Below, piece after piece: positions 40,956 to 50,537 of a stretch of DNA of 64,000 bases. The stretch comes from Alphaproteobacteria bacterium. Lineage in GTDB: Bacteria > Pseudomonadota > Alphaproteobacteria > SHVV01. The stretch spans positions 4,128,001 through 4,192,000 of the forward strand of contig OZ253470.1 of NCBI GenBank assembly GCA_965261735.1, given 5' to 3'. How positions within the stretch are numbered: the stretch's first letter is position 1; each line of letters opens with the position of its first letter. Position numbers and translations under genes: made by a program. The notes beneath the pieces are model-generated. The model was not told where the DNA came from and made no database searches. It worked only from the letters and a program-made list of their open reading frames with translations.

Positions 40956-42250
40956 TTTGGCCCCCAGTGCCCCTTGAGAAGCTCGCGCGTGCTTCTGGCG
41001 GAAGCACACCCAAGCGTAACAACGATTCCTATTGGAATGGCGATGTCCCTTGGGTGACCCCTTCAGACTTGCCAGCACCAGGAGCATCGATCGTCGATGT
41101 GGAGGACACCAAGGACCACATCACACAGGAGGGGCTCAATTCCTGTTCCGCCCTGCTCTTGCCGCCTGAAACGGTGCTCTTCTCCTCCCGCGCGACCATT
41201 GGGAAAATCGGTATTGCCAAGGTTCCTTTAGCGACCAACCAGGGCTTTGCGAATTTCACGCCCAACCTTGGTGTTGAGCCAAAGTATCTTGCATATGCGC
41301 TTCGGTATTTTACGCCACAGATCACCGCACTGGCCGGTTCTACTACCTTCAAGGAAGTGAGCCGGGGCGCGATCCGCAAATTCCAGATCCCTCTCCCGCC
41401 CCCTTCGGAGCAGAAGCGAATCGTCGAAATTCTCGATCAGGCCGATGCGCTCCAGCGTGAATGTGCAGAGGCGGACGCAAAGAAACAGCGTATCCTACCA
41501 GCGCTATTCACGAGAATGTTCGGAGACCCGGCTACCAACCCCATGGGGTGGCCGACCGCACCGATGGGTGATGTTGTTGAGATTGGTACAAAACTTGTTG
41601 ATCCAAACGGGAGTACGTATCTCGATCTGCCGCATATTGGTGGAGAAGAAATCGAAAAGAACACCGGCCGCATCCTTTCTACTAAATTAGTACGCGATAG
41701 CAAACTTCGAAGCAGCAAATTTCATTTCACGCGGGAACATATTCTTTATTCGAAGATTCGTCCTTATCTAAATAAAGTTTCCTATCCCGGTTTCGAAGGA
41801 CTTTGTAGCGCGGACATTTACCCTCTACGTCCAAAAGATAACCACACCACAACATGGTATCTTGTAGCGCTTCTTCGCTCAACGTCCTTCCTCTGCTATG
41901 CAAACTTGCATTCAGAGCGGCTGCGAATGCATAAGTTGAATCGCGAGCAGTTGGGAGCGTTCAAAACACCTTTGCCCGATCCTGAGTTACTGGAGGCTTT
42001 CGAGCAACGGGCACAGTCATTGGCCACATTTGACGTTAGTCGTTTTCACCGAGCTCGTGAAACGAAAACATTGTTCCACGTCATCATTCATCGATCCTTC
42101 TCTGGCGAGCTCACCGCCAAATGGCGCGACAGCCACACCGATGAGCTATTGCGAGAAGCTCAGGAACAAGCGGAGGCGCTGGAGACGGTGTGTGCCGGAA
42201 CCTCGACCGGCCCCCGCCGCGGACGGCCTTTGAAAGCGGTGTCATGTTGA
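40952..42250 (+). CDS. hsdS: Type I R-M specificity subunit
   Basis: GGSTP...YWNGDVPWV, IPLPPPSEQKRIV, FGDPATNPMGW, two target-recognition domains. Confidence 0.93.
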   Translation: MIWPPVPLEKLARASGGSTPKRNNDSYWNGDVPWVTPSDLPAPGASIVDVEDTKDHITQEGLNSCSALLLPPETVLFSSRATIGKIGIAKVPLATNQGFANFTPNLGVEPKYLAYALRYFTPQITALAGSTTFKEVSRGAIRKFQIPLPPPSEQKRIVEILDQADALQRECAEADAKKQRILPALFTRMFGDPATNPMGWPTAPMGDVVEIGTKLVDPNGSTYLDLPHIGGEEIEKNTGRILSTKLVRDSKLRSSKFHFTREHILYSKIRPYLNKVSYPGFEGLCSADIYPLRPKDNHTTTWYLVALLRSTSFLCYANLHSERLRMHKLNREQLGAFKTPLPDPELLEAFEQRAQSLATFDVSRFHRARETKTLFHVIIHRSFSGELTAKWRDSHTDELLREAQEQAEALETVCAGTSTGPRRGRPLKAVSC

Positions 42251-43923
42251 CAGCGATTCGCCTCGGCAATTTCAAGGCATTCGGGGCGACCCAACGGGTG
42301 CCTTTGAAGCCCCTCACTCTAGTCTTTGGCCCCAATAGTGCCGGCAAATCGAGCATTATTCACAGTTTGGCGCTCGCACACGAGGCCCGTCGAAGCGGAA
42401 ATCTCGACGCTTTCCGGACCGACGTCGGCGGCACATCGATCGATCTGGGCGGCTTTCGCCAGTATGTGTTTCGCCGCGACCCTTCCCATCGTGTCGAGTT
42501 GGCGATGGAAATCGATGTCTCCAAGCTCTCTGGACGGTTGGCAGAAATACTGGCGCCCATACGCACCGCAGCAGTGTCGGTCAATTTCGGTTTACCTGTG
42601 GATGATCACGGTTATGCGCCAAGCGACGCATTGACTGAATTAGAGAGTTATAAGGTCGAAGGGGATGGGTCCGATCTACTACGTATGAGCAGGCGCCCAG
42701 GCGGCAATCTCCATCTTGATCGTCTGGCGAACGAACATCCAGTGTTTCGCCAAGTCCTCAAGGCGATCGTCGAGACGGGCACTACCACTTCCGAACTCAG
42801 GAACGAAGACCAAAAGGTCCTTGATGAGACCATCGCCGACCTTATTCCGATGCTAAAGGTCAAAGCCGGGCGTTTTCTCCCAGATGGAATAGAGGGCACT
42901 TCGGAACAGGCCGAGAGTGGGGCCGCCGAAGCCATGCTCTTCCCCGTCGGTCGCGGCAGCAGATCAGAGGATCTGGCCGGTGCAGTTCGCTTCTATTTGC
43001 CGCGCATTCTGAATGAGTTGATCGGTGGGCTGGATCATGAGGTCGGTGAACAGATAGAGCGGCTTCAATATCTAGGGCCGCTTCGCTCGTACCCGCCCCG
43101 CCATCTGGCGTTTTCCGAACACGACGACGCGAACTGGCACGCCGGGGGCGGCTATGCGTGGGACGTGCTCCGGCGAGACTGGATGGTCAGGGAGCAAGTC
43201 AACAAGTGGCTTGGGGCTAATTGGCTCAAGACCAACTACCAACTTGTGCTACGGGAATTTGTCGCGATGGATCAACTTGACAAACCGCTTTCAACTGCAT
43301 TCGAGACCTTTGAAGGCGACGACCAAGTCCTTGACCTTGAGGTAGATTACGATCATTCGAGCGGAGAACCTTCAGGTCAATACCCGGTTATTAAAGACGC
43401 TGACGAAGCAATATCTCGCATCCGAACGTGTATCGAAATGTCCGACATCGACAAATTAGCGGAGTTAATCCTTGTCGATCAAAGCACGGAGACCGTGGTT
43501 AGCCACCGGGACGTCGGCATCGGCATCTCGCAGGTTTTGCCGGTCCTTGTCTCGTGCTACGGCCTTCGCGACCAGATCGTCGCGATCGAGCAGCCGGAGA
43601 TCCATCTGCACCCAGCGCTTCAGGCCGAGCTAGGCGATGTCTTTATTCAGTCGGCGCTCGGCGACAATAACAATGCCTTCGTTCTAGAGACCCATTCCGA
43701 ACATTTGATCCTCAGGATCATGCGCCGAATTCGCGACACCGCCGATGATAGACTCCCTTCCGGTGTTCCTGCCGTCAAGCCCGACGACGTTTCGGTGATT
43801 TTTGTTGAACAAACGAAGGTGGGAGCAATCGTTCGGGTGCTCCAACTCGACACCGACGGCGAGTTTACCGATTCCTGGCCAGGCGGTTTCTTTGAAGAGG
43901 GCTTCAGAGAACGGTTCACTTAA
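42244..43923 (+). CDS. ABC-type/AAA_21 ATPase with DUF3696-like C-terminus
   Basis: NFKAF, Walker A GPNSAGKSS, GIGISQVLP, Walker B IEQPEIHLHP, ETHSE, WPGGFF. Confidence 0.9.
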   Translation: MLTAIRLGNFKAFGATQRVPLKPLTLVFGPNSAGKSSIIHSLALAHEARRSGNLDAFRTDVGGTSIDLGGFRQYVFRRDPSHRVELAMEIDVSKLSGRLAEILAPIRTAAVSVNFGLPVDDHGYAPSDALTELESYKVEGDGSDLLRMSRRPGGNLHLDRLANEHPVFRQVLKAIVETGTTTSELRNEDQKVLDETIADLIPMLKVKAGRFLPDGIEGTSEQAESGAAEAMLFPVGRGSRSEDLAGAVRFYLPRILNELIGGLDHEVGEQIERLQYLGPLRSYPPRHLAFSEHDDANWHAGGGYAWDVLRRDWMVREQVNKWLGANWLKTNYQLVLREFVAMDQLDKPLSTAFETFEGDDQVLDLEVDYDHSSGEPSGQYPVIKDADEAISRIRTCIEMSDIDKLAELILVDQSTETVVSHRDVGIGISQVLPVLVSCYGLRDQIVAIEQPEIHLHPALQAELGDVFIQSALGDNNNAFVLETHSEHLILRIMRRIRDTADDRLPSGVPAVKPDDVSVIFVEQTKVGAIVRVLQLDTDGEFTDSWPGGFFEEGFRERFT

Positions 43924-43925
43924 AG

Positions 43926-44894
43926 GTGTTGGAATTGTTTTACGAATACGCGATCACGCCAGAAGTTTTCGACCCAGCCTTCTTAGCAGAAAACGGGGCG
44001 AACCCTGTGGTTATCACTCAGCTTCTCCGTGGAATTTGCGAAAACGAAATGATCGCCGTCCTGCATAAGAACGGATGGAGCAGAGACATTGCACAACGCA
44101 TTGGTAGTGTGCCTTCACAGAAAAACAGAAACAAGCTCATGACGTTGTTGTCGGGTCTCAAGGACCGAAATCGGTTGGTACGGCACCCAAAAGGACCGAA
44201 CCATCCAAACGACAAATTGGAATGGCTGGTATTAGCTCGCGAAGCTCACAATCGTGCGCCACTTGACGCGCTCATGCTCACCCCTGAATTGCTCAAGATT
44301 AGTGGCATGAATGATGAAATTTTGATTGAAGTTGATAGTGCGTTGGATTCGCGGGCTTGGCTTGCTCGAAAACGATCCGAGACAATCAAACAACGAGAAG
44401 AGGATTATCGAGGCTTGTTTCCGAAAATCCTGCGTCACTCAAAACGGCTTTACCTCATCGACCGCTTCTTCAGGCCCGAACTGCGTCAATGGACTGACAC
44501 GATTAAGATTTGCGACTCATTGATGGGGCAACGTGGCGGAGAACCGCTTCAGGGCATTATCGAGATACACACTGGCGATCCTTCAAAGCGATGTTCGCCT
44601 CAACACGAAGCGGCGGCATGGGAACGTTGGAAGAGAGCGGAGTTCGTTCCAAATTTCCGCCACACGTTGTCAGTCGGGATGTGGAAGAGATGCGACGACG
44701 GCAAACGCGTACATGACCGCTTCCTGATAACGGATCAGGTGGGGTTCTCGATTGCTGGTGGATTGGATTGCCTAAGGCCGCCATTTGGCACTCCGTCCGA
44801 TACGATCTGGACACTGATGGATGAAGAGGAGCGACAGCTTTGGCTGAGCAAGTTTAGGGCGGACACAAGCCCTTACGAGAAAATTGAACCGTAG
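43926..44894 (+). CDS. Hypothetical protein with a C-terminal PLD-like 'HDR' domain (putative nuclease)
   Basis: LYLIDRFF and HDRFLITD..GFSI.GGLD; starts 2 bp after the ATPase stop. Confidence 0.7.
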   Translation: MLELFYEYAITPEVFDPAFLAENGANPVVITQLLRGICENEMIAVLHKNGWSRDIAQRIGSVPSQKNRNKLMTLLSGLKDRNRLVRHPKGPNHPNDKLEWLVLAREAHNRAPLDALMLTPELLKISGMNDEILIEVDSALDSRAWLARKRSETIKQREEDYRGLFPKILRHSKRLYLIDRFFRPELRQWTDTIKICDSLMGQRGGEPLQGIIEIHTGDPSKRCSPQHEAAAWERWKRAEFVPNFRHTLSVGMWKRCDDGKRVHDRFLITDQVGFSIAGGLDCLRPPFGTPSDTIWTLMDEEERQLWLSKFRADTSPYEKIEP

Positions 44895-44911
44895 CAGCGG
44901 TGAGCGAAATG

Positions 44912-44957
44912 TGAGGCGGCCTCGCCTTTTCGGACAGCTTGGCGGCTGAGTTAAGGT
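44912..44957. mobile_element. Possible IS3-family terminal stub
   Basis: TGAGGCGGCCTCGCCTTTTCGGACAG resembles IS3 inverted repeats. Confidence 0.35.
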
Positions 44958-45320
44958 GTGACAACTTACAGCCCAAAAGGGCTATCTACACGAACATATA
45001 CAGCGTTGCTCAATCCTCCTGATAATTACGATGTTACAATAGCTTGGCCTGTCCGCCATCAAAACAAATGGGACTGTTAACCGTGTTTCATAAGGGAGGA
45101 TCTGGCTCATCTTTGTTTGATGTTAAGCCGCTTGGCGTTGATGGCCCAAGCGGTGGTTTTGGGTGGTCAGTTTTTGATCCTTTTTCCCTTTTTGTCAACG
45201 GCGGCGGGAATATGTACCGGGGCGGCGCTGCAAAAATGATGGAGTGGACGCCTCCTCCCGACGGCATCTGCATGTGCCAAGGTGGTGTTGTAGTTCGACC
45301 CCCTGAAGGAGGAGGCATCC

Positions 45321-46343
45321 GTGGAACAGGTTACCATCGTCGGGATTGATTTGGCGAAGCGCAGCTTTCAGCTTCATGGTGCTGGGGCGGACGGCTCTGT
45401 CGTGTTCCGCAGGAAGCTGAGCCGGGAGAGATTGCTGGACTTTCTCGCTTCTCAGCCGCGCTGCGTGGTCGCGATGGAGGCTTGCGCGGGCGCTCACCAA
45501 TGGGGCCGCGAGATCGGAGAGCTCGGCCACGAGGTGAGGTTGCTCCCGCCGGTCTACGTCAAGCCGTTCGTGAAGCGGCATAAGAACGACATGGCGGATG
45601 CAGAGGCGATCTGCGAGGCGGCGCAGCGCCCGACGATGCGCTTCGTGGCGGTGAAGACGAAAGAACAGCAGGCCAGGGGAATGCTGTTCCACACGCGCGA
45701 CCTTCTGGTGCGCCAGCGCACGCAGACGATCAACGCGTTGCGGGGCCACCTGGCGGAGTTTGGCGTTGTCGCGCCGCAGGGACCGGCTCATGTCGATCGG
45801 CTGGCATCGGCCCTCCAGGGTCCAGGTTCAGGGCTGCCAGGATCGGTCCGTGAGCTGGGCGCCCTTCTGCTCGATCGGATCGAGGACCTCGATGCGAAGA
45901 TCGACGGATTGAGGAGGGAGCTCCGCGCCCGCGCGTGTCAGGACGAAGAGGCGGCACGGCTCATGACGATCCCCGGCATTGGGCCGATCACCGCAATGGC
46001 AATCCAGGCCTTCGCACCGCCGATGGAGAGCTTCCGACGCGGCCGCGACTTCGCGGCCTGGCTCGGGCTCGTGCCGCGACAGCACACGACCGGCGGCAAG
46101 CCAAGGCTTGGCAGGATATCGAAGATGGGCCAACGCGATCTGCGGCGGCTGTTGATCACGGGCGCCATGGCTGTGGTCAGCTGGGCGGCTCGGCGTGGCG
46201 CGACGAACGACCCCTGGCTGGCCAGGATGCTGGCCCGCAAGCCGAGAATGCTGGTCGCGGTGGCGCTGGCCAACCGGATGGCACGCATCATCTGGGCGCT
46301 GACAACGAAGAAGGAGAGCTACCGGGCTCCCGCCGCCGCCTGA
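45321..46343 (+). CDS. IS110-family (DEDD) recombinase/transposase
   Basis: GIDLAK, MEAC, KNDMADAEAI, TIPGIGP, AAWLGLVP; GTG after GGAGG. Confidence 0.95.
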   Translation: MEQVTIVGIDLAKRSFQLHGAGADGSVVFRRKLSRERLLDFLASQPRCVVAMEACAGAHQWGREIGELGHEVRLLPPVYVKPFVKRHKNDMADAEAICEAAQRPTMRFVAVKTKEQQARGMLFHTRDLLVRQRTQTINALRGHLAEFGVVAPQGPAHVDRLASALQGPGSGLPGSVRELGALLLDRIEDLDAKIDGLRRELRARACQDEEAARLMTIPGIGPITAMAIQAFAPPMESFRRGRDFAAWLGLVPRQHTTGGKPRLGRISKMGQRDLRRLLITGAMAVVSWAARRGATNDPWLARMLARKPRMLVAVALANRMARIIWALTTKKESYRAPAAA

Positions 46344-46600
46344 GAGGACGGCGAAAGGCGGAGAGCCGTCGGGGATGTGGGCAGGTCGGAGGACAGGTAA
46401 GGGCAAACGGTCAATCGAGACGGGATCGGGAAAACCAGTCGTGGTACACGGAGCTTTCAAGCCCGCAAAAATGATCTTGGACCCGGTCCGCGCATCTCCA
46501 TACAGGCCCGCGGCGTCAAACCAGCCGCATCATGAGGCCGGACAGATGACTGCACCTGACCGCATGTGCCGAACCGTCCGAAGAAAGGCTTGCATCAACG
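46344..46600 (+). ncRNA. Putative bridge RNA / seekRNA in the IS1111 3' non-coding end
   Basis: Contains CGTGGTACA and GCAAAAATG (match the target flanks) and CTCCAT and ACAGATGA (match the circle junction), set in stem-loops; exact boundaries unknown. Confidence 0.8.
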
Positions 46601-46750
46601 GAGGCGTCCACAGATGTACCACGGGCTCGGTGGTAGCTTGTCCGCATAGTCCATGGGAGGGACCCGCGCGCGGGGCGACGCGCCCTCCGCGCGGCTGGCG
46701 GCGGCCCGCGCGTGAGAGGGGCGTGTGGGCCCACGCGGGCAAGCGGGGGG

Positions 46751-47515
46751 TTATTCGGACGGTTGCCGGCGTCGTGACCGGCTCTGCTTGAGCCGGTAGC
46801 TCTCGCCGTTCATCTCCAGGATATGGACATGGTGGGTGATGCGGTCGAGCAGCGCGCCGGTGAGGCGCTCGCTGGCGAAGACCGTCGTCCATTCCTGGAA
46901 GGGCAGGTTTGAGGTCACGATGGTGGCGCCGTTCTCGTAGCGCCGGCTGAAGACGTCGAACAGCAGCTCGCTTCCGGTCTGCGACAGGGGCACGTAGCCG
47001 AGCTCGTCGACGATCAGGAGATTGACCCTGGCGAGCTGGGCCTGGAGTCGGAGCAGCCTCTTCTCGTCGCGCGCCTCGATCAGCTCGTGGACCAGGTGGG
47101 GGGCGGTGGCGAAGCGCACGCCGAGGCCCTTCTGGCAGGCGGCGAGGCCGAGGGCGAGAGCGACATGGGTCTTTCCGACGCCGCTCGGGCCGAGCAGGAT
47201 TACGTTCTCGCGGCGCGCGATGTACTCGCCGCGGGCGAGATCCAGCACCAGCATCTTGTTGAGCGCCGGGATCGCCTTGAAGTCGAAGCTCTCGAGCTGT
47301 TTGACGACAGGGAACCCGGCCTGCTTGATACGCCGTTCGACGAGGCGGCGCTCGCGGTCGATCAGCTCCAGCTCCACCAGCCGGGCCAGGAACTGCACAT
47401 GATCCAGGCCCTCGGCCGCGCACTGGCGCGCCAGTTTCTCGTATTCCCGCAGGAAGGTCGGCAGCTTCAGCCTCTTCAGGTGATGTTCGAGCAGGATGCG
47501 GGGGGCCTCAGCCAT
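46751..47515 (-). CDS. istB: IS21 helper ATPase IstB
   Basis: GPSGVGKTH, LIVDELGY, TSNLPF.EW, LLDRITHH. Confidence 0.95.
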   Translation of the reverse strand: MAEAPRILLEHHLKRLKLPTFLREYEKLARQCAAEGLDHVQFLARLVELELIDRERRLVERRIKQAGFPVVKQLESFDFKAIPALNKMLVLDLARGEYIARRENVILLGPSGVGKTHVALALGLAACQKGLGVRFATAPHLVHELIEARDEKRLLRLQAQLARVNLLIVDELGYVPLSQTGSELLFDVFSRRYENGATIVTSNLPFQEWTTVFASERLTGALLDRITHHVHILEMNGESYRLKQSRSRRRQPSE

Positions 47516-49010
47516 GGCCGGCCCCTCCGGCCAGCAGGATGGCGTAGTCGGCGCTCCGCGTGGCGGCGACGAAGGGCTGGGGCAGGTGCGGATAGCGCGA
47601 CAGGTCGAGATGCACGGGCCGCCTCTCGATGCGCGCCAGCAGGAGATGCTTGACCGCATCGAAGCCGATCAGGCGCCGCTTCACCGCGTCGCGCACCGCG
47701 GCCGCCACCTGCCGTTCCGGGAAGTCTTCGTGCAGGCGCAGCACCTGGATGTATTCGCGCTTGCCGCGCGGGCCGAAGCGGGCTTCGAGGAGGCGGCGCA
47801 GCGTGTCGAAGGCGGGATCGAGCTTCCATCCCCGCAGCGGCGCCGCCTGGTCCAGGGCGCCCGGCTTCTTCTCCAGCAGCGACAGATAGTGCAGCGGGTC
47901 GTAGATGACGTCGCCGCGGACATAGGAGCGCCGATGGCGGGCGACGATCTCGGCGCCGAGCGCGATCTCGACCCGGTCGACATAGCCCTTCACCATGACC
48001 TTCTTGTGGGCGTGCGCCGCCGGCGCCGAGTAGTCCACCAGCCGGTAGCGCACCAGGGCCGTGGACGAGATCTGGCCCGGCACATGCTCGCAAGCCTCGA
48101 AGGGAACCGCCGGCAGATCGCGCAGGGCCTCGAGATCGGCCAGCGCCGCCGCCGCCTGCCCCCCTGCCTCCAGCGCGTCGAGCCGCTCAAGGCAGCGCGC
48201 CAGCAGCCGCTCGTTCAGGACCGACAGGTCATGCACCTTCGGGATCGGCACCATGAACCGGCGCCGTGCCGTCTTCACCAGGGCCTCGACCTTGCCCTTG
48301 TCGTTGCCCTTGCCGGGCCGGCCGAAGCGGTCGCGGAACAGGTAGTGCGATTGCAGATGCGTGAACGCCTGCGTGCGCCGACGCGTGCCGTCGCCCAGGA
48401 TCCTCGCCACCGCAAGCGTCGTGTTGTCATAGAGGATCGATCGCGGCACACCGCCGAGGAAGGCGAAGGCGCTGACATGGCCGTCCAGGAAGGCCTCCGT
48501 CGTCTCCCTCGGATAGGCCTTGACGAACCAGACGTTGGAATGGGGCAGGATCAGGCAGAAGAAGGCAACCTTCTCCCGCCTGCCCCCGACCTCCACCACC
48601 GCCTCGCCGAAGTCGACCTGGGCATGGCCCGGCGGGTGATGCAGCGGCACAAAAGCCTCGCGCGTCGACTGCCGCCGAGCCCGGACATAGTCCTTCACGA
48701 TGGTATAGCCGCCGGTGAACCCGTGCTCGTCCCGTAGCCGCTCGAATATCCGGTGCGCCGTGTGGCGCTGCTTGCGCGGCACGTCCGGATCCGTGTCCGC
48801 CTCCAGGATCGCGTCGACGATGCCGGTGAACCCGTCCAGCTTGGGCCGCCGGACCGGCTTCGTCCGGCGGTAGCCCGGTGGCGCCGAGTAGGTCAGCATC
48901 TTCTTCACCGTGCGACGGTCGATGCCGAACCGCCGGCCCGCCTCGTGATGACTCAGACCCTCGTCGACAACCGCCAGTCGAACCGCCGCATAGAGCTCCA
49001 CGCCGTACAT
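47508..49010 (-). CDS. istA: IS21 transposase IstA
   Basis: GHAQVDFG, GGVPRSILYDN, KGKVE. Confidence 0.95.
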   Translation of the reverse strand: MYGVELYAAVRLAVVDEGLSHHEAGRRFGIDRRTVKKMLTYSAPPGYRRTKPVRRPKLDGFTGIVDAILEADTDPDVPRKQRHTAHRIFERLRDEHGFTGGYTIVKDYVRARRQSTREAFVPLHHPPGHAQVDFGEAVVEVGGRREKVAFFCLILPHSNVWFVKAYPRETTEAFLDGHVSAFAFLGGVPRSILYDNTTLAVARILGDGTRRRTQAFTHLQSHYLFRDRFGRPGKGNDKGKVEALVKTARRRFMVPIPKVHDLSVLNERLLARCLERLDALEAGGQAAAALADLEALRDLPAVPFEACEHVPGQISSTALVRYRLVDYSAPAAHAHKKVMVKGYVDRVEIALGAEIVARHRRSYVRGDVIYDPLHYLSLLEKKPGALDQAAPLRGWKLDPAFDTLRRLLEARFGPRGKREYIQVLRLHEDFPERQVAAAVRDAVKRRLIGFDAVKHLLLARIERRPVHLDLSRYPHLPQPFVAATRSADYAILLAGGAGHG

Positions 49011-49292
49011 CTCGTGCCCCTCGTCGCAACCGACAAGGGACCATGAGTGGCACAATTTTGCGCCGCCGCGACCGGACCGCCCGGCCGCCTCGCGTGGAGC
49101 ATTATTCCTCCGCCGTTAACAACCGCCGCTTGAACCATCAAAGCCAAGCGGCTTAACATCAAACAAAGATGAGCCAGATCCTCCCTTATGAAACACGCTC
49201 AACAGTCCCATTTGTTTTGATGACGGACAGGCAGGCCCGCGCGGAAGCACCTTGATCGCCCAGCCGGAAGCGCCTTGTTCGAGTGCGGGGCG

Positions 49293-50537
49293 CTAGGCCG
49301 CGCGCTTATCGAAACGCCGGGTCCGCCTGCGGCGCTTGCGGGGGCTCGGTGCCGGTCGAGGCGCCGCGCCCTTGCCGTTATTGCCCGACGCGGCCACAGT
49401 CTCGTCCGGCGCCTCGCCGACAACCCGCAATGACTCTTTGATCAACCGCTCGATCGCGCGCAGTTGCGGCCGCTCGCTGGCATCGCAGAACGAGATCGCG
49501 ATGCCCGCGGCGCCCGCGCGCGCGGTGCGGCCGATCCGGTGAACGTAGCATTCGGGCTCGTTCGGCAGCTCGTAATTGATGACGTGGGTGACGTCGTCGA
49601 CGTCAAGCCCGCGCGCGGCGACATCGGTGGCCACCAGCACCCGCACTTCTCCGGTGCGGAAGTTTTCGAGCGCCCGTTGGCGCGCATTTTGGGACTTATT
49701 GCCATGCAGCGCATCGGCACTGACCCCGCCAAGGGCGAGCCGTTTGACCACCTGGTTGGCGCCGCGTTTGGTGCGCGTAAATACCAGCACCTTTTTGAGA
49801 TCGGGTGCGGCAAGAAGCTTGGCCAGAAGATCGCGTTTCGAGGCCGTGGCGAGGTGATGGACGTGTTGCTCGACGCGCTCCACCGCCACCCTCTTGGCCG
49901 CGATTTCGACCCGTTCAGGCTCGAACAGGACCTCGCCGGCGAGCTTCGCAACCTCGGCCGGCATGGTCGCCGAAAAGAGCTGTGTCTGCCGCTCATCAGG
50001 CAGCATCGCCACGATCTTACGCACGTCGCGGATGAAGCCCATGTCGAACATGCGGTCGGCCTCGTCGATGATGAGGTATTCGCACTGGCTCAAATCGGCG
50101 CGGCGCTGCTGCGCGAGATCGAGAAGCCGGCCCGGCGTGGCAACCAGAATGTCGACGCTGCGGCGCAGCGCCTCGATCTGGGGCCGCTGGGGGACGCCGC
50201 CCATGACGACCGCCTGGCGAAATTGCAGGTGCCGCCCATAGGTCTTGATGCTGCTGGAGATCTGTAGCGCGAGTTCGCGCGTGGGCGCGAGAATTAGCGC
50301 TCGCGTCGTCCACGGCGAAGCCTTGACGCCGTCTTCGACGAGGTTCTGCAGAAGCGGCAGCGTGAACGCCGCTGTCTTGCCGGTGCCCGTCTGGGCGATA
50401 CCGAGCAGATCCATGCCGTCCAGCAGGTACGGAATGGCGCGACGTTGAATGGGGGTGGGGGTGTCGTACTGCGCGTCTTCAAGCGCGCGTAAAAGCCGCT
50501 CGGAGAGCCCGAGTTCGGCGAAAGCTGAAACTGTCAA
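49293..50537 (-). CDS. DEAD-box RNA helicase (RhlE-like)
   Basis: AQTGTGKT, PTRELA, TPGR, DEAD, SAT, HRIGRTAR; TTG start after AAGGA. Confidence 0.95.
   Translation of the reverse strand: MTVSAFAELGLSERLLRALEDAQYDTPTPIQRRAIPYLLDGMDLLGIAQTGTGKTAAFTLPLLQNLVEDGVKASPWTTRALILAPTRELALQISSSIKTYGRHLQFRQAVVMGGVPQRPQIEALRRSVDILVATPGRLLDLAQQRRADLSQCEYLIIDEADRMFDMGFIRDVRKIVAMLPDERQTQLFSATMPAEVAKLAGEVLFEPERVEIAAKRVAVERVEQHVHHLATASKRDLLAKLLAAPDLKKVLVFTRTKRGANQVVKRLALGGVSADALHGNKSQNARQRALENFRTGEVRVLVATDVAARGLDVDDVTHVINYELPNEPECYVHRIGRTARAGAAGIAISFCDASERPQLRAIERLIKESLRVVGEAPDETVAASGNNGKGAAPRPAPSPRKRRRRTRRFDKRAA

Follow-up and report, generated by a model that had tools for sequence, protein, structure and literature searches.

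We describe an insertion sequence (IS) of the IS1111 family that occupies positions 45239-46616 (plus strand, 1378 bp) of a 64,000-nucleotide stretch of alphaproteobacterial DNA (contig OZ253470.1, positions 4,128,001 to 4,192,000), referred to here as the window. Its host is an IS21-family element, and the insertion splits R2, the inner direct repeat in the right terminal inverted repeat of that host. We hold with high confidence that this is an intact, recently active IS1111 element that chooses its insertion site with an RNA encoded in its own 3' non-coding region, an RNA of the type named seekRNA or bridge RNA. We observe the anatomy of the family, specificity for one site and one orientation, covariation of the guides with target and donor, covariation within the predicted RNA structure, and independent insertions. 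For relatives, published work (PMC11187229 and PMC11208160) describes an RNA that is produced, associates with the transposase and guides recombination of a circular donor with the target. By analogy, the RNA of the present element would be made and bound by its transposase, and excision would proceed via a circle.

The boundaries of the element are well defined. The left flank GCTGCAAAAATG ends at 45238, the element begins with ATGGAG at 45239, and its last bases CACAGATG end at 46616. The dinucleotide TG is present twice, closing both the left flank (45237-45238) and the element (46615-46616); the alternative span 45237-46614 is equally valid when this duplicated core is counted as part of the left end. 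The left half of the target, GCAAAAATG (45230-45238, plus strand), includes the core TG and is identical to guide 2 of the element. The right half, TACCACG (46617-46623, plus strand), is the right half of the IS21 R2. The preliminary description of this DNA, made from the letters alone, had proposed that removal of 45239-46616 restores the IS21 inner repeat, and this is borne out by real empty sites. An uninterrupted IS21 right end in the same genome (genome position 2249788, minus strand) reads GCAAAATTGTACCACG and differs from the restored target by one mismatch. In addition, a contig from sequencing run X16 joins 45235 straight to 46614, skipping 1378 bases, and thereby represents an uninterrupted IS21 end.

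The source genome contains 19 full-length copies of the element, three at 100% identity, one at 97%, one at 86% and 14 at 81-82%. The three copies at 100% and the copy at 97%, which we call A-type, have identical ends. No A-type copy is at a site unrelated to GCAAAAATGTACCACG; all four occupy the same R2 site, each in an IS21 right end, between GCAAAAATG and TACC(A/G)CG and in a single orientation, in agreement with the target that the preliminary description had named. The 86% copy, called B-type, is inserted at CCAAAATTG^ACCCC, the corresponding position of a diverged IS21, and adjoins an istB that is approximately 37% identical to the istB of the window. The 14 copies at 81-82% are inserted at ..AACCG^TTCG.., in unrelated places. 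Across the three groups the non-coding scaffold is conserved and three blocks vary, each of which matches the flanks or the ends of its own element. Guide 1 reads TCGTGGTACA in A-type copies, CGGTGGGTCA in the 86% copy and CATCCGAACG in the 82% copies. For guide 2 the corresponding sequences are GCAAAAATG, GCAAAATTG and GCGTAACCG. The donor block is ACAGATGA in both the A-type and the 86% copies and ACACACGA in the 82% copies.

These blocks lie in the 3' non-coding region of 273 bp (46344-46616, plus strand), which encodes the predicted guide RNA. Its core spans 46409-46561 (plus strand) and is bounded by an outer stem of GGTCA (46409-46413) and TGACC (46557-46561). Guide 1, TCGTGGTACAC (46439-46449, plus strand), is the complement of the top strand over the core and the right flank (TGTACCACG), with 7/8 flank positions and the core matched; CGTGGTACA is contained in it at 46440-46448. 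Guide 2, GCAAAAATG (46465-46473, plus strand), equals the top strand of the left flank and the core at 7/7 positions plus the core, and would from its sequence pair with the bottom strand of the target. The complement of the top strand is thus located 5' of the match to the bottom strand, and both overlap at the junction. The same guide order is reported for IS1111 seekRNAs by Siddiquee et al. (PMC11187229). Two donor blocks follow downstream. The putative left-donor guide is a conserved block, ATCTCCATAC (46494-46503, plus strand), in which CTCCAT (46496-46501) complements the left end ATGGAG. The right-donor guide is GGACAGATGAC (46540-46550, plus strand), which includes ACAGATGA at 46542-46549 and the sequence ACAGATG, identical to the last seven bases of the element. 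All motif positions given in the preliminary description are found where it had placed them.

A scan of genome contigs yielded 555 relatives, of which the best 80 were kept (66-86% amino acid identity). Together with the 19 copies of the own genome these make 99 elements; 74 of them could be parsed for ends and guide region, which gave 38 distinct guide regions, and most of the 25 unparsed elements have shortened or longer right parts. We aligned 34 of the 38 guide regions, leaving out L045 as a near-duplicate of L044, and L058, L072 and L094, for which the automatic end pairing took the wrong repeat. Over these 34 lineages, guide and flank match in a fixed register at 313/510 positions. Permuted pairings give 138.3 +/- 11.4 matches with a maximum of 192, and none of 10,000 permutations reaches 313, on which ground we reject chance guide-flank matches. 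The 9/9 target matches at 46465-46473 and 46440-46448 to which the preliminary description had drawn attention belong to a set that is above chance. On average, guide 2 matches the left flank at 5.12/7 positions and guide 1 the right flank at 4.09/8. The core dinucleotide of guide 2 equals the core of the flank in 34/34 lineages.

The donor side can be read from the same alignment. The right-end 7-mer equals the donor-block sequence in 30/34 lineages, and this holds for several distinct variants. Of the four exceptions, one differs by a single base and three end in ..ACA instead of ..ACG. Taken together, both target guides and the right-donor guide change with the flanks and ends across the homologues, which is the co-variation that the preliminary description had suggested looking for. 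Its proposal that both donor blocks match the circle junction holds up for the right end; for the left end, CTCCAT is located where it was said to be, and covariation support is lacking, the exact 6-mer complement being present in 7/34 lineages. The match between CTCCAT and ATGGAG, which rests on conservation and not on covariation, weakly points to a left-donor guide.

The covariation also bears on a reading in which the transposase protein alone recognizes the IS21 repeat and the non-coding matches are incidental. The long subterminal inverted repeats of IS1111 elements may be read by protein, the left-donor block does not covary, and the RNA is predicted here from sequence, all of which would fit this explanation. 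It does not account for transposases that are 80-85% identical to each other and use unrelated targets, where the targets track both guide blocks. Nor does it explain why guide, donor guide, element end and flank all change their core dinucleotide together. Experiments on four IS1111 elements have found the RNA to be essential and reprogrammable (PMC11187229). We consider recognition by protein alone very improbable, and guidance by an RNA remains the reading that we prefer.

Support for such an RNA as a folded molecule comes from a consensus fold computed on the alignment of the 34 guide regions. The fold has 36 pairs. Of the alignment cells at these positions 98.3% are paired, compared to 27.6-49.3% if the 3' partners are slid by one to three columns. 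Changes on both sides are found in eight pairs, four of them in the closing stem of the target loop and two in its cap, and in 0/500 shuffles does the covariation score reach the observed value. The predicted target-binding stem-loop (46423-46489, plus strand) holds guide 1, a cap hairpin of 4 bp and guide 2, with the guides placed in an internal loop. Its outer stem pairs 46423-46430 with 46482-46489 (4/8 pairs changed on both sides), and the cap hairpin pairs 46451-46454 with 46461-46464 (2/4 pairs changed on both sides). The stem GGGATCGGG/CCCGGTCC (46422-46430 and 46482-46489), which the preliminary description had seen enclosing the target guides, is present, and this closing stem itself covaries. 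A second predicted stem at 46505-46539, in which 46505-46508 pair with 46536-46539 and enclose an inner hairpin, has one donor block on either side. Two further predicted helices involve the invariant subterminal repeat; no pair in them is changed on both sides, and they were not counted.

From these elements we propose the following mechanism. The RNA would fold into the target-binding stem-loop 46423-46489. The 5' strand of its internal loop (46439-46449) would pair with the top strand of the target over the core TG and the right flank, and the 3' strand (46465-46473) would pair with the bottom strand over the left flank and the core. The second module, that is the stem 46505-46539 flanked by 46494-46503 and 46540-46550, would read the joined ends of the excised element, a donor reading that is firm for the right end ACAGATG and weak for the left end ATGGAG. 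The DEDD transposase would then recombine donor and target at the shared TG without target duplication. The target programmed in this way would be GCAAAAA-TG-TACCACG, which is R2, the inner one of the two direct repeats at the right end of the IS21.

Since the programmed target is the IS21 R2, the element is a parasite of the ends of another transposon. Could the IS21-like flanks instead be part of the mobile unit, with a larger segment being copied and the apparent target just carried along? Two of the four A-type copies do sit in IS21 end remnants that lack an IS21 body and retain just 40-46 bp to the left of the insertion and 58-77 bp to its right, as expected for a carried flank. However, these remnants do not share their boundaries; the left one corresponds to window position 45199 or 45193, the right one to 46674, 46682 or 46693. 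The three 100% copies show 0 differences in 1378 bp, and their IS21 flanks differ at 1-3/40 positions on the left and at 2/58 on the right. Over 98 flank positions, copies with an identical IS are given as differing at 4-5. Because the flanks differ while the IS is identical, the A-type copies are separate insertions and not copies of a larger segment. Furthermore, uninterrupted sites exist in the own genome (one), in the run X16 contig (one) and in a related genome, G001 (23), and relatives with changed guides sit at correspondingly changed sites. A carried flank is thus hardly probable, and insertion of the 1378-bp element into existing IS21 ends is the explanation that we adopt.

The A-type copies also bear on the question of present activity. 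The 97% copy has 36 differences, none of them in the guides, and the full reading frame of 340 codons is kept with unchanged guides in 4/4 A-type copies. Judged from these sequences, the copies point to recent movement. An alternative is that the element and its guides are as described and that the genome copies are now inactive, with no present effect on an IS21 that is already decaying. This fits the state of the IS21 population. The only complete IS21 of the target type is the one in the window; one A-type copy lies in an internally deleted IS21 and two lie in short end remnants. No exact empty target is left in the own genome, where one right end with one mismatch and four left-end inner repeats with three mismatches are empty, and no circle junction is seen in contigs. 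The identity of three copies over 1378 bp and the intact frames and guides speak against it, and we regard present inactivity as unlikely, while giving it more room than the protein-only and carried-flank explanations. The reading of an intact and recently active element is retained.

Relatives outside the source genome follow the same rule. The closest ones (L031-L036 and L042, approximately 85% amino acid identity) are all found in IS21-family terminal repeats. The IstA and IstB proteins of these host elements are just 31-41% identical to those of the window. Their common site is the repeated motif GGCGTNCAAWATTG^ACCCCC. The repeat that is used varies, being R1 in L031 and L033, R2 in L042 and L2 in L032, L034, L035 and L036, and the orientation relative to the IS21 terminus is constant. 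All 12 further insertions with flanks outside the own genome lie in an IS21-family terminal repeat motif; these are L031-L036, L042 and the outer element of L038, plus G001 loci that partly overlap them. In a transposase tree of 73 sequences, from which 11 loci were left out as too short or broken, ten transposases from elements in IS21 ends form one branch with support of 97/95. The guides of this clade follow the equivalent repeat in diverged IS21 families.

G001, a genome of the same family as that of the window, provides a larger sample. Ten of its 14 matches to the element have loci, and 10/10 of these copies have inserted into repeats of this kind, with L2 used eight times and R1 twice. 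Some of these places share flanks with loci of the 80-relative set, and the two sets are not summed. The istA region of this IS21 type has 41 matches in G001. Of the 30 with loci, seven have an occupied L2 and 23 an uninterrupted one, in which the sequence runs unbroken across the junction. The seven inserted copies are identical in 21/21 pairs, while the host IS21 copies differ at 1-33/2200 positions. Because the inserts are identical while their hosts differ, an IS21 that moves with its passenger is argued against, and the sequences speak for separate recent invasions. One relative departs from the terminal repeats. In L066 (37-3666), it separates the istA match from the istB match of its IS21-family host, at ACAAGTCCG^TCAAGTCC, and both of its guides fit this site.

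The transposases of this set raise a point beyond IS21. Genomes labelled Alphaproteobacteria, Gemmatimonadota (Longimicrobiales), Acidobacteriota (Vicinamibacterales) and Binatota all carry transposases that are 75-85% identical. This distribution suggests, on sequence identity, recent transfer of the IS lineage between phyla.

What does the insertion mean for its host? The IS21-family element is encoded on the minus strand at 45193-49121 and measures 2551 bp without the insertion. The outer part of its right terminal inverted repeat (45193-45238, minus strand) comprises the terminus TGTCAACGG, R1 (ATGTACC, 45212-45218) and the left half of R2. The terminus TGTCAACGG recurs at three other places of the genome, each time after a different upstream sequence. 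ATGTACC repeats are located at 45212 and 45236 with a spacing of 24 bp, the second being completed past the insertion. The remainder of the host (46617-49121, minus strand) contains istB (47659-46751, minus strand; PF01695, IstB_IS21, 1.1e-74) and istA, a 515-amino-acid open reading frame (ORF; 49055-47508, minus strand) with rve and Mu-transposase C (Mu-transpos_C_2) domains. The left terminal repeat ends at 49121. The left end also has two related repeats, and its inner repeat, GCAAAATTGTGCCAC (49061-49047, minus strand), is unoccupied. With IstA, the AAA+ helper IstB and ends of two spaced direct repeats, the host shows the features of the IS21 family. In studied IS21 elements, each terminal repeat is built from direct repeats (L1/L2 and R1/R2) with a spacing of 23 bp, and IstA does not integrate unless two repeats are complete (PMC10122671). 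By analogy with these elements, R2 is a putative binding site of the IstA transposase. A split R2 would disable the IS21, because IstA requires two complete repeats (same source).

Several observations weigh against RNA-guided insertion into IS21 ends as described above. Just one complete IS21 of this type is present, and two A-type copies sit in short solo end remnants. The 86% copy matches its own site just partly, at 6/7 and 4/8 positions. In the rigid register, guide 1 reaches just the mean given above and several lineages score 0-2; these low scores arise because the register of guide 1 is shifted by one base there, which rigid scoring disallows. On the donor side, CCAT in the RNA and ATGG in the left end are invariant, which leaves no covariation. 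The occupied IS21 copies of G001 are all at different places, as would also fit an IS21 still moving with its passenger. The stability of the single-sequence fold is ordinary compared to shuffles (z = -1.07), and we relied on the alignment instead. A scan of 44500-49800 against Rfam 15 at E <= 1 gave no family match and only three weak microRNA-like chance hits; Rfam may have no model for RNAs of this type. A promoter scan found no sigma-70-like promoter in the integrated element. No circle junction is seen in the contigs of four runs, which cannot show absence. Finally, contigs from RNA libraries show neither strand nor ends nor level and may include DNA.

With this restriction, the contigs of two metatranscriptome runs from one study, which may contain DNA, cover 46409-46539, both as A-type sequence and as a variant. 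The differences of the variant contigs in the guide blocks (46439-46452 and 46471) carry the letters of the 86% B-type copy. The contig that joins 45235 to 46614 also comes from these runs. For a seekRNA or bridge RNA, processing to about 70-100 nt and binding by the transposase would be expected. In two RNA-library runs of one study, contigs are deeper over 46388-46555 than over the gene; nothing is drawn from this, since the parts of a gene cannot be ranked by contig depth. A junction-spanning promoter was also considered, composed of the conserved GCTTGC (46588-46593), 17 bases and GATGAT. It agrees with the consensus at 7/12 positions, and no claim is made for it.

In every family feature open to test, 45239-46616 belongs to IS1111, a family listed under IS110 in ISfinder. 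The single long ORF of the element (45321-46343, plus strand) encodes a DEDD transposase of the IS110/IS1111 type with 340 amino acids and a GTG start. Its Pfam domains are PF01548 (DEDD_Tnp_IS110, 1.7e-14, residues 7-146), the DEDD/RuvC-like N-terminal domain, and PF02371 (Transposase_20, 1.1e-24, residues 212-289) in the C-terminal part. IS1111 transposases are described as having 330-350 amino acids and the motif GL-P----S(t)G (PMC11187229); GLVPRQHTTG in the present translation fits this pattern. According to the same source, the subterminal inverted repeats measure 11-13 bp, and the element extends beyond them by 7 (or 6) bp at its left end and by 3 bp at its right end. Here, the left repeat is GTGGACGCCTCC (12 bp, 45244-45255, plus strand), and the right repeat is GGAGGCGTCCAC (46600-46611, plus strand), followed by AGA and the core TG. 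Counting the core TG at the left, the terminal extensions are 7 and 3 bp, in agreement with the published values. The non-coding lengths are 82 bp 5' of the transposase gene and 273 bp 3' of it, the longer one being downstream as in the family. The family is also characterized by one target in one orientation with no duplication beyond the shared core, and this is seen in 4/4 copies and at the empty sites.

Among proteins of solved structure, the only relatives found by sequence are the transposases of ISCro4 (E = 2.8e-11) and IS621 (1.3e-08), in both cases over the C-terminal domain only. In annotated plasmids, 906 records have a match. The 120 full-length matches listed are 65.5-69.7% identical and carry no annotation beyond 'IS110 family transposase'.

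In target choice, the closest likeness is to an IS1111-family element for which insertion into the terminal inverted repeat of a Tn21/Tn3-family transposon is reported, at a single position and in a single orientation. Both elements share the preference for one position and one orientation in the terminal inverted repeat of another transposon. The host is an IS21-family element here and not one of the Tn21/Tn3 family, and the two systems are compared by description, not by sequence. In contrast to the Tn21 case, the site here is a repeated transposase-binding motif with two to three occurrences per end, of which relatives use R1, R2 or L2.

In mechanism, the closest known systems are ISEc11, ISKpn4, ISPst6 and ISPa11, for which seekRNAs were demonstrated experimentally by Siddiquee et al. 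2024 (PMC11187229). With these four the present element shares the DEDD transposase of 330-350 amino acids, the subterminal repeats of 11-13 bp and the downstream non-coding region. In all of them, two short matches to the target have an overlap at the junction and the guides stand in the same order, and natural reprogramming between close relatives is likewise shared. Their targets are a short linear site, attC sites and REP sequences; here the targets are IS21 terminal repeats. Unlike in those four elements, the RNA is deduced here from sequence and covariation only. The bridge recombinases IS621 and ISCro4 (Durrant et al. 2024, PMC11208160; structures 8wt6 and 9t56) employ a single RNA that combines a target-binding loop with a donor-binding part. 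The core dinucleotide common to donor and target, and guides that pair with both strands, are shared with them. IS621 differs in belonging to the IS110 group, in encoding its RNA in the left end, in subterminal repeats of 2-3 bp and in a reversed guide order.

IS1111 elements at recombination sites of other mobile elements are known; the sites reported are Tn21 inverted repeats and attC sites (the latter in PMC11187229). For an IS110/IS1111 element that targets IS21 ends, no report was found in the literature searched; ISfinder and the supplements of the 2024 papers were outside this search and may list such elements. The mechanism has been known since 2024; the novelty lies in the class of target, namely the IstA-binding repeats of IS21. 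The proposal in the preliminary description of a candidate new recombinase and guide pair accordingly stands for the IS21-end target, which is new, and not for the mechanism, which is that of the known seekRNA or bridge RNA and no new kind.

A number of relatives are inserted in one another. L038 (569-3002), and likewise L124 and L130 in genome G002, is a triple nest. Its inner IS1111 relative has entered a B-type IS1111 element, whose guide-RNA gene it interrupts within the conserved scaffold, at GGGCAAACG^GTCAATCG; the B-type element itself sits in an IS21-family right end. The guides of the inner element (GCGCAAACG and the complement of CGGTCAA) fit the scaffold site. In the Longimicrobiales genomes of L058, L060 and L061, insertions at CAAGAGGCCG^GACATACG fall within the donor-binding part of the non-coding region of relatives of the same clade. 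They give tandem or nested copies, and their guides fit (GAGGCCG and the complement of CGGACATAC). At L075 (60-2796) and L091, two related elements are arranged head to tail. The second one interrupts the first at GGGGGCG^TCCATAGACG, in its right subterminal repeat, and guide 1 of the second matches GTCCATAGA. In L089 (2785-3964) the right-end repeat core GGCGTCCAC is found ten times with a period of 131 bp downstream of one element, forming a tandem right-end array. Similar arrays in IS110 loci are described in a 2026 preprint (10.64898/2026.08.14.744561).

The surroundings of the host in the window contain further repeats and genes. Inverted copies of a repeat of approximately 116 bp lie to either side of the IS21 (45040-45165, plus strand, and 49121-49232, minus strand); the repeat has about ten copies in the genome with 84-94% identity. 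The IS21 may have inserted into a small element whose ends are long and inverted. The ends of the IS21 in the window show no target duplication. A 577-amino-acid ORF (42190-43923, plus strand) has the domains AAA_15, AAA_21 and DUF3696, an ATPase kind that is found in some defence systems. It is followed by a 322-amino-acid ORF without a Pfam match.

For the study of IS1111 elements, the copies described here represent a clean natural data set on RNA-guided site choice, with three related lineages and three targets in one genome. The 34 guide lineages on one RNA scaffold could serve for covariance model building and for the choice of new recombinase and guide pairs. The known mechanism is left unchanged by the finding. 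A wider interpretation appears possible to us, and we put it forward tentatively, considering it rather doubtful at present. An RNA-guided IS lineage would have specialized on the IstA-binding repeats of IS21, retuning its guides between GCAAAAATG^TACCAC and CCAAAATTG^ACCCCC and disabling the IS21 elements that it enters. Together with the mutual targeting of guide-RNA gene, donor loop and right end (L038, L058, L060, L061, L075 and L091), this might amount to an RNA-guided transposon conflict and a natural anti-transposon system. With IS21 terminal repeats, the few transposon ends known to serve as targets gain a further member, which suggests that some transposons limit others.

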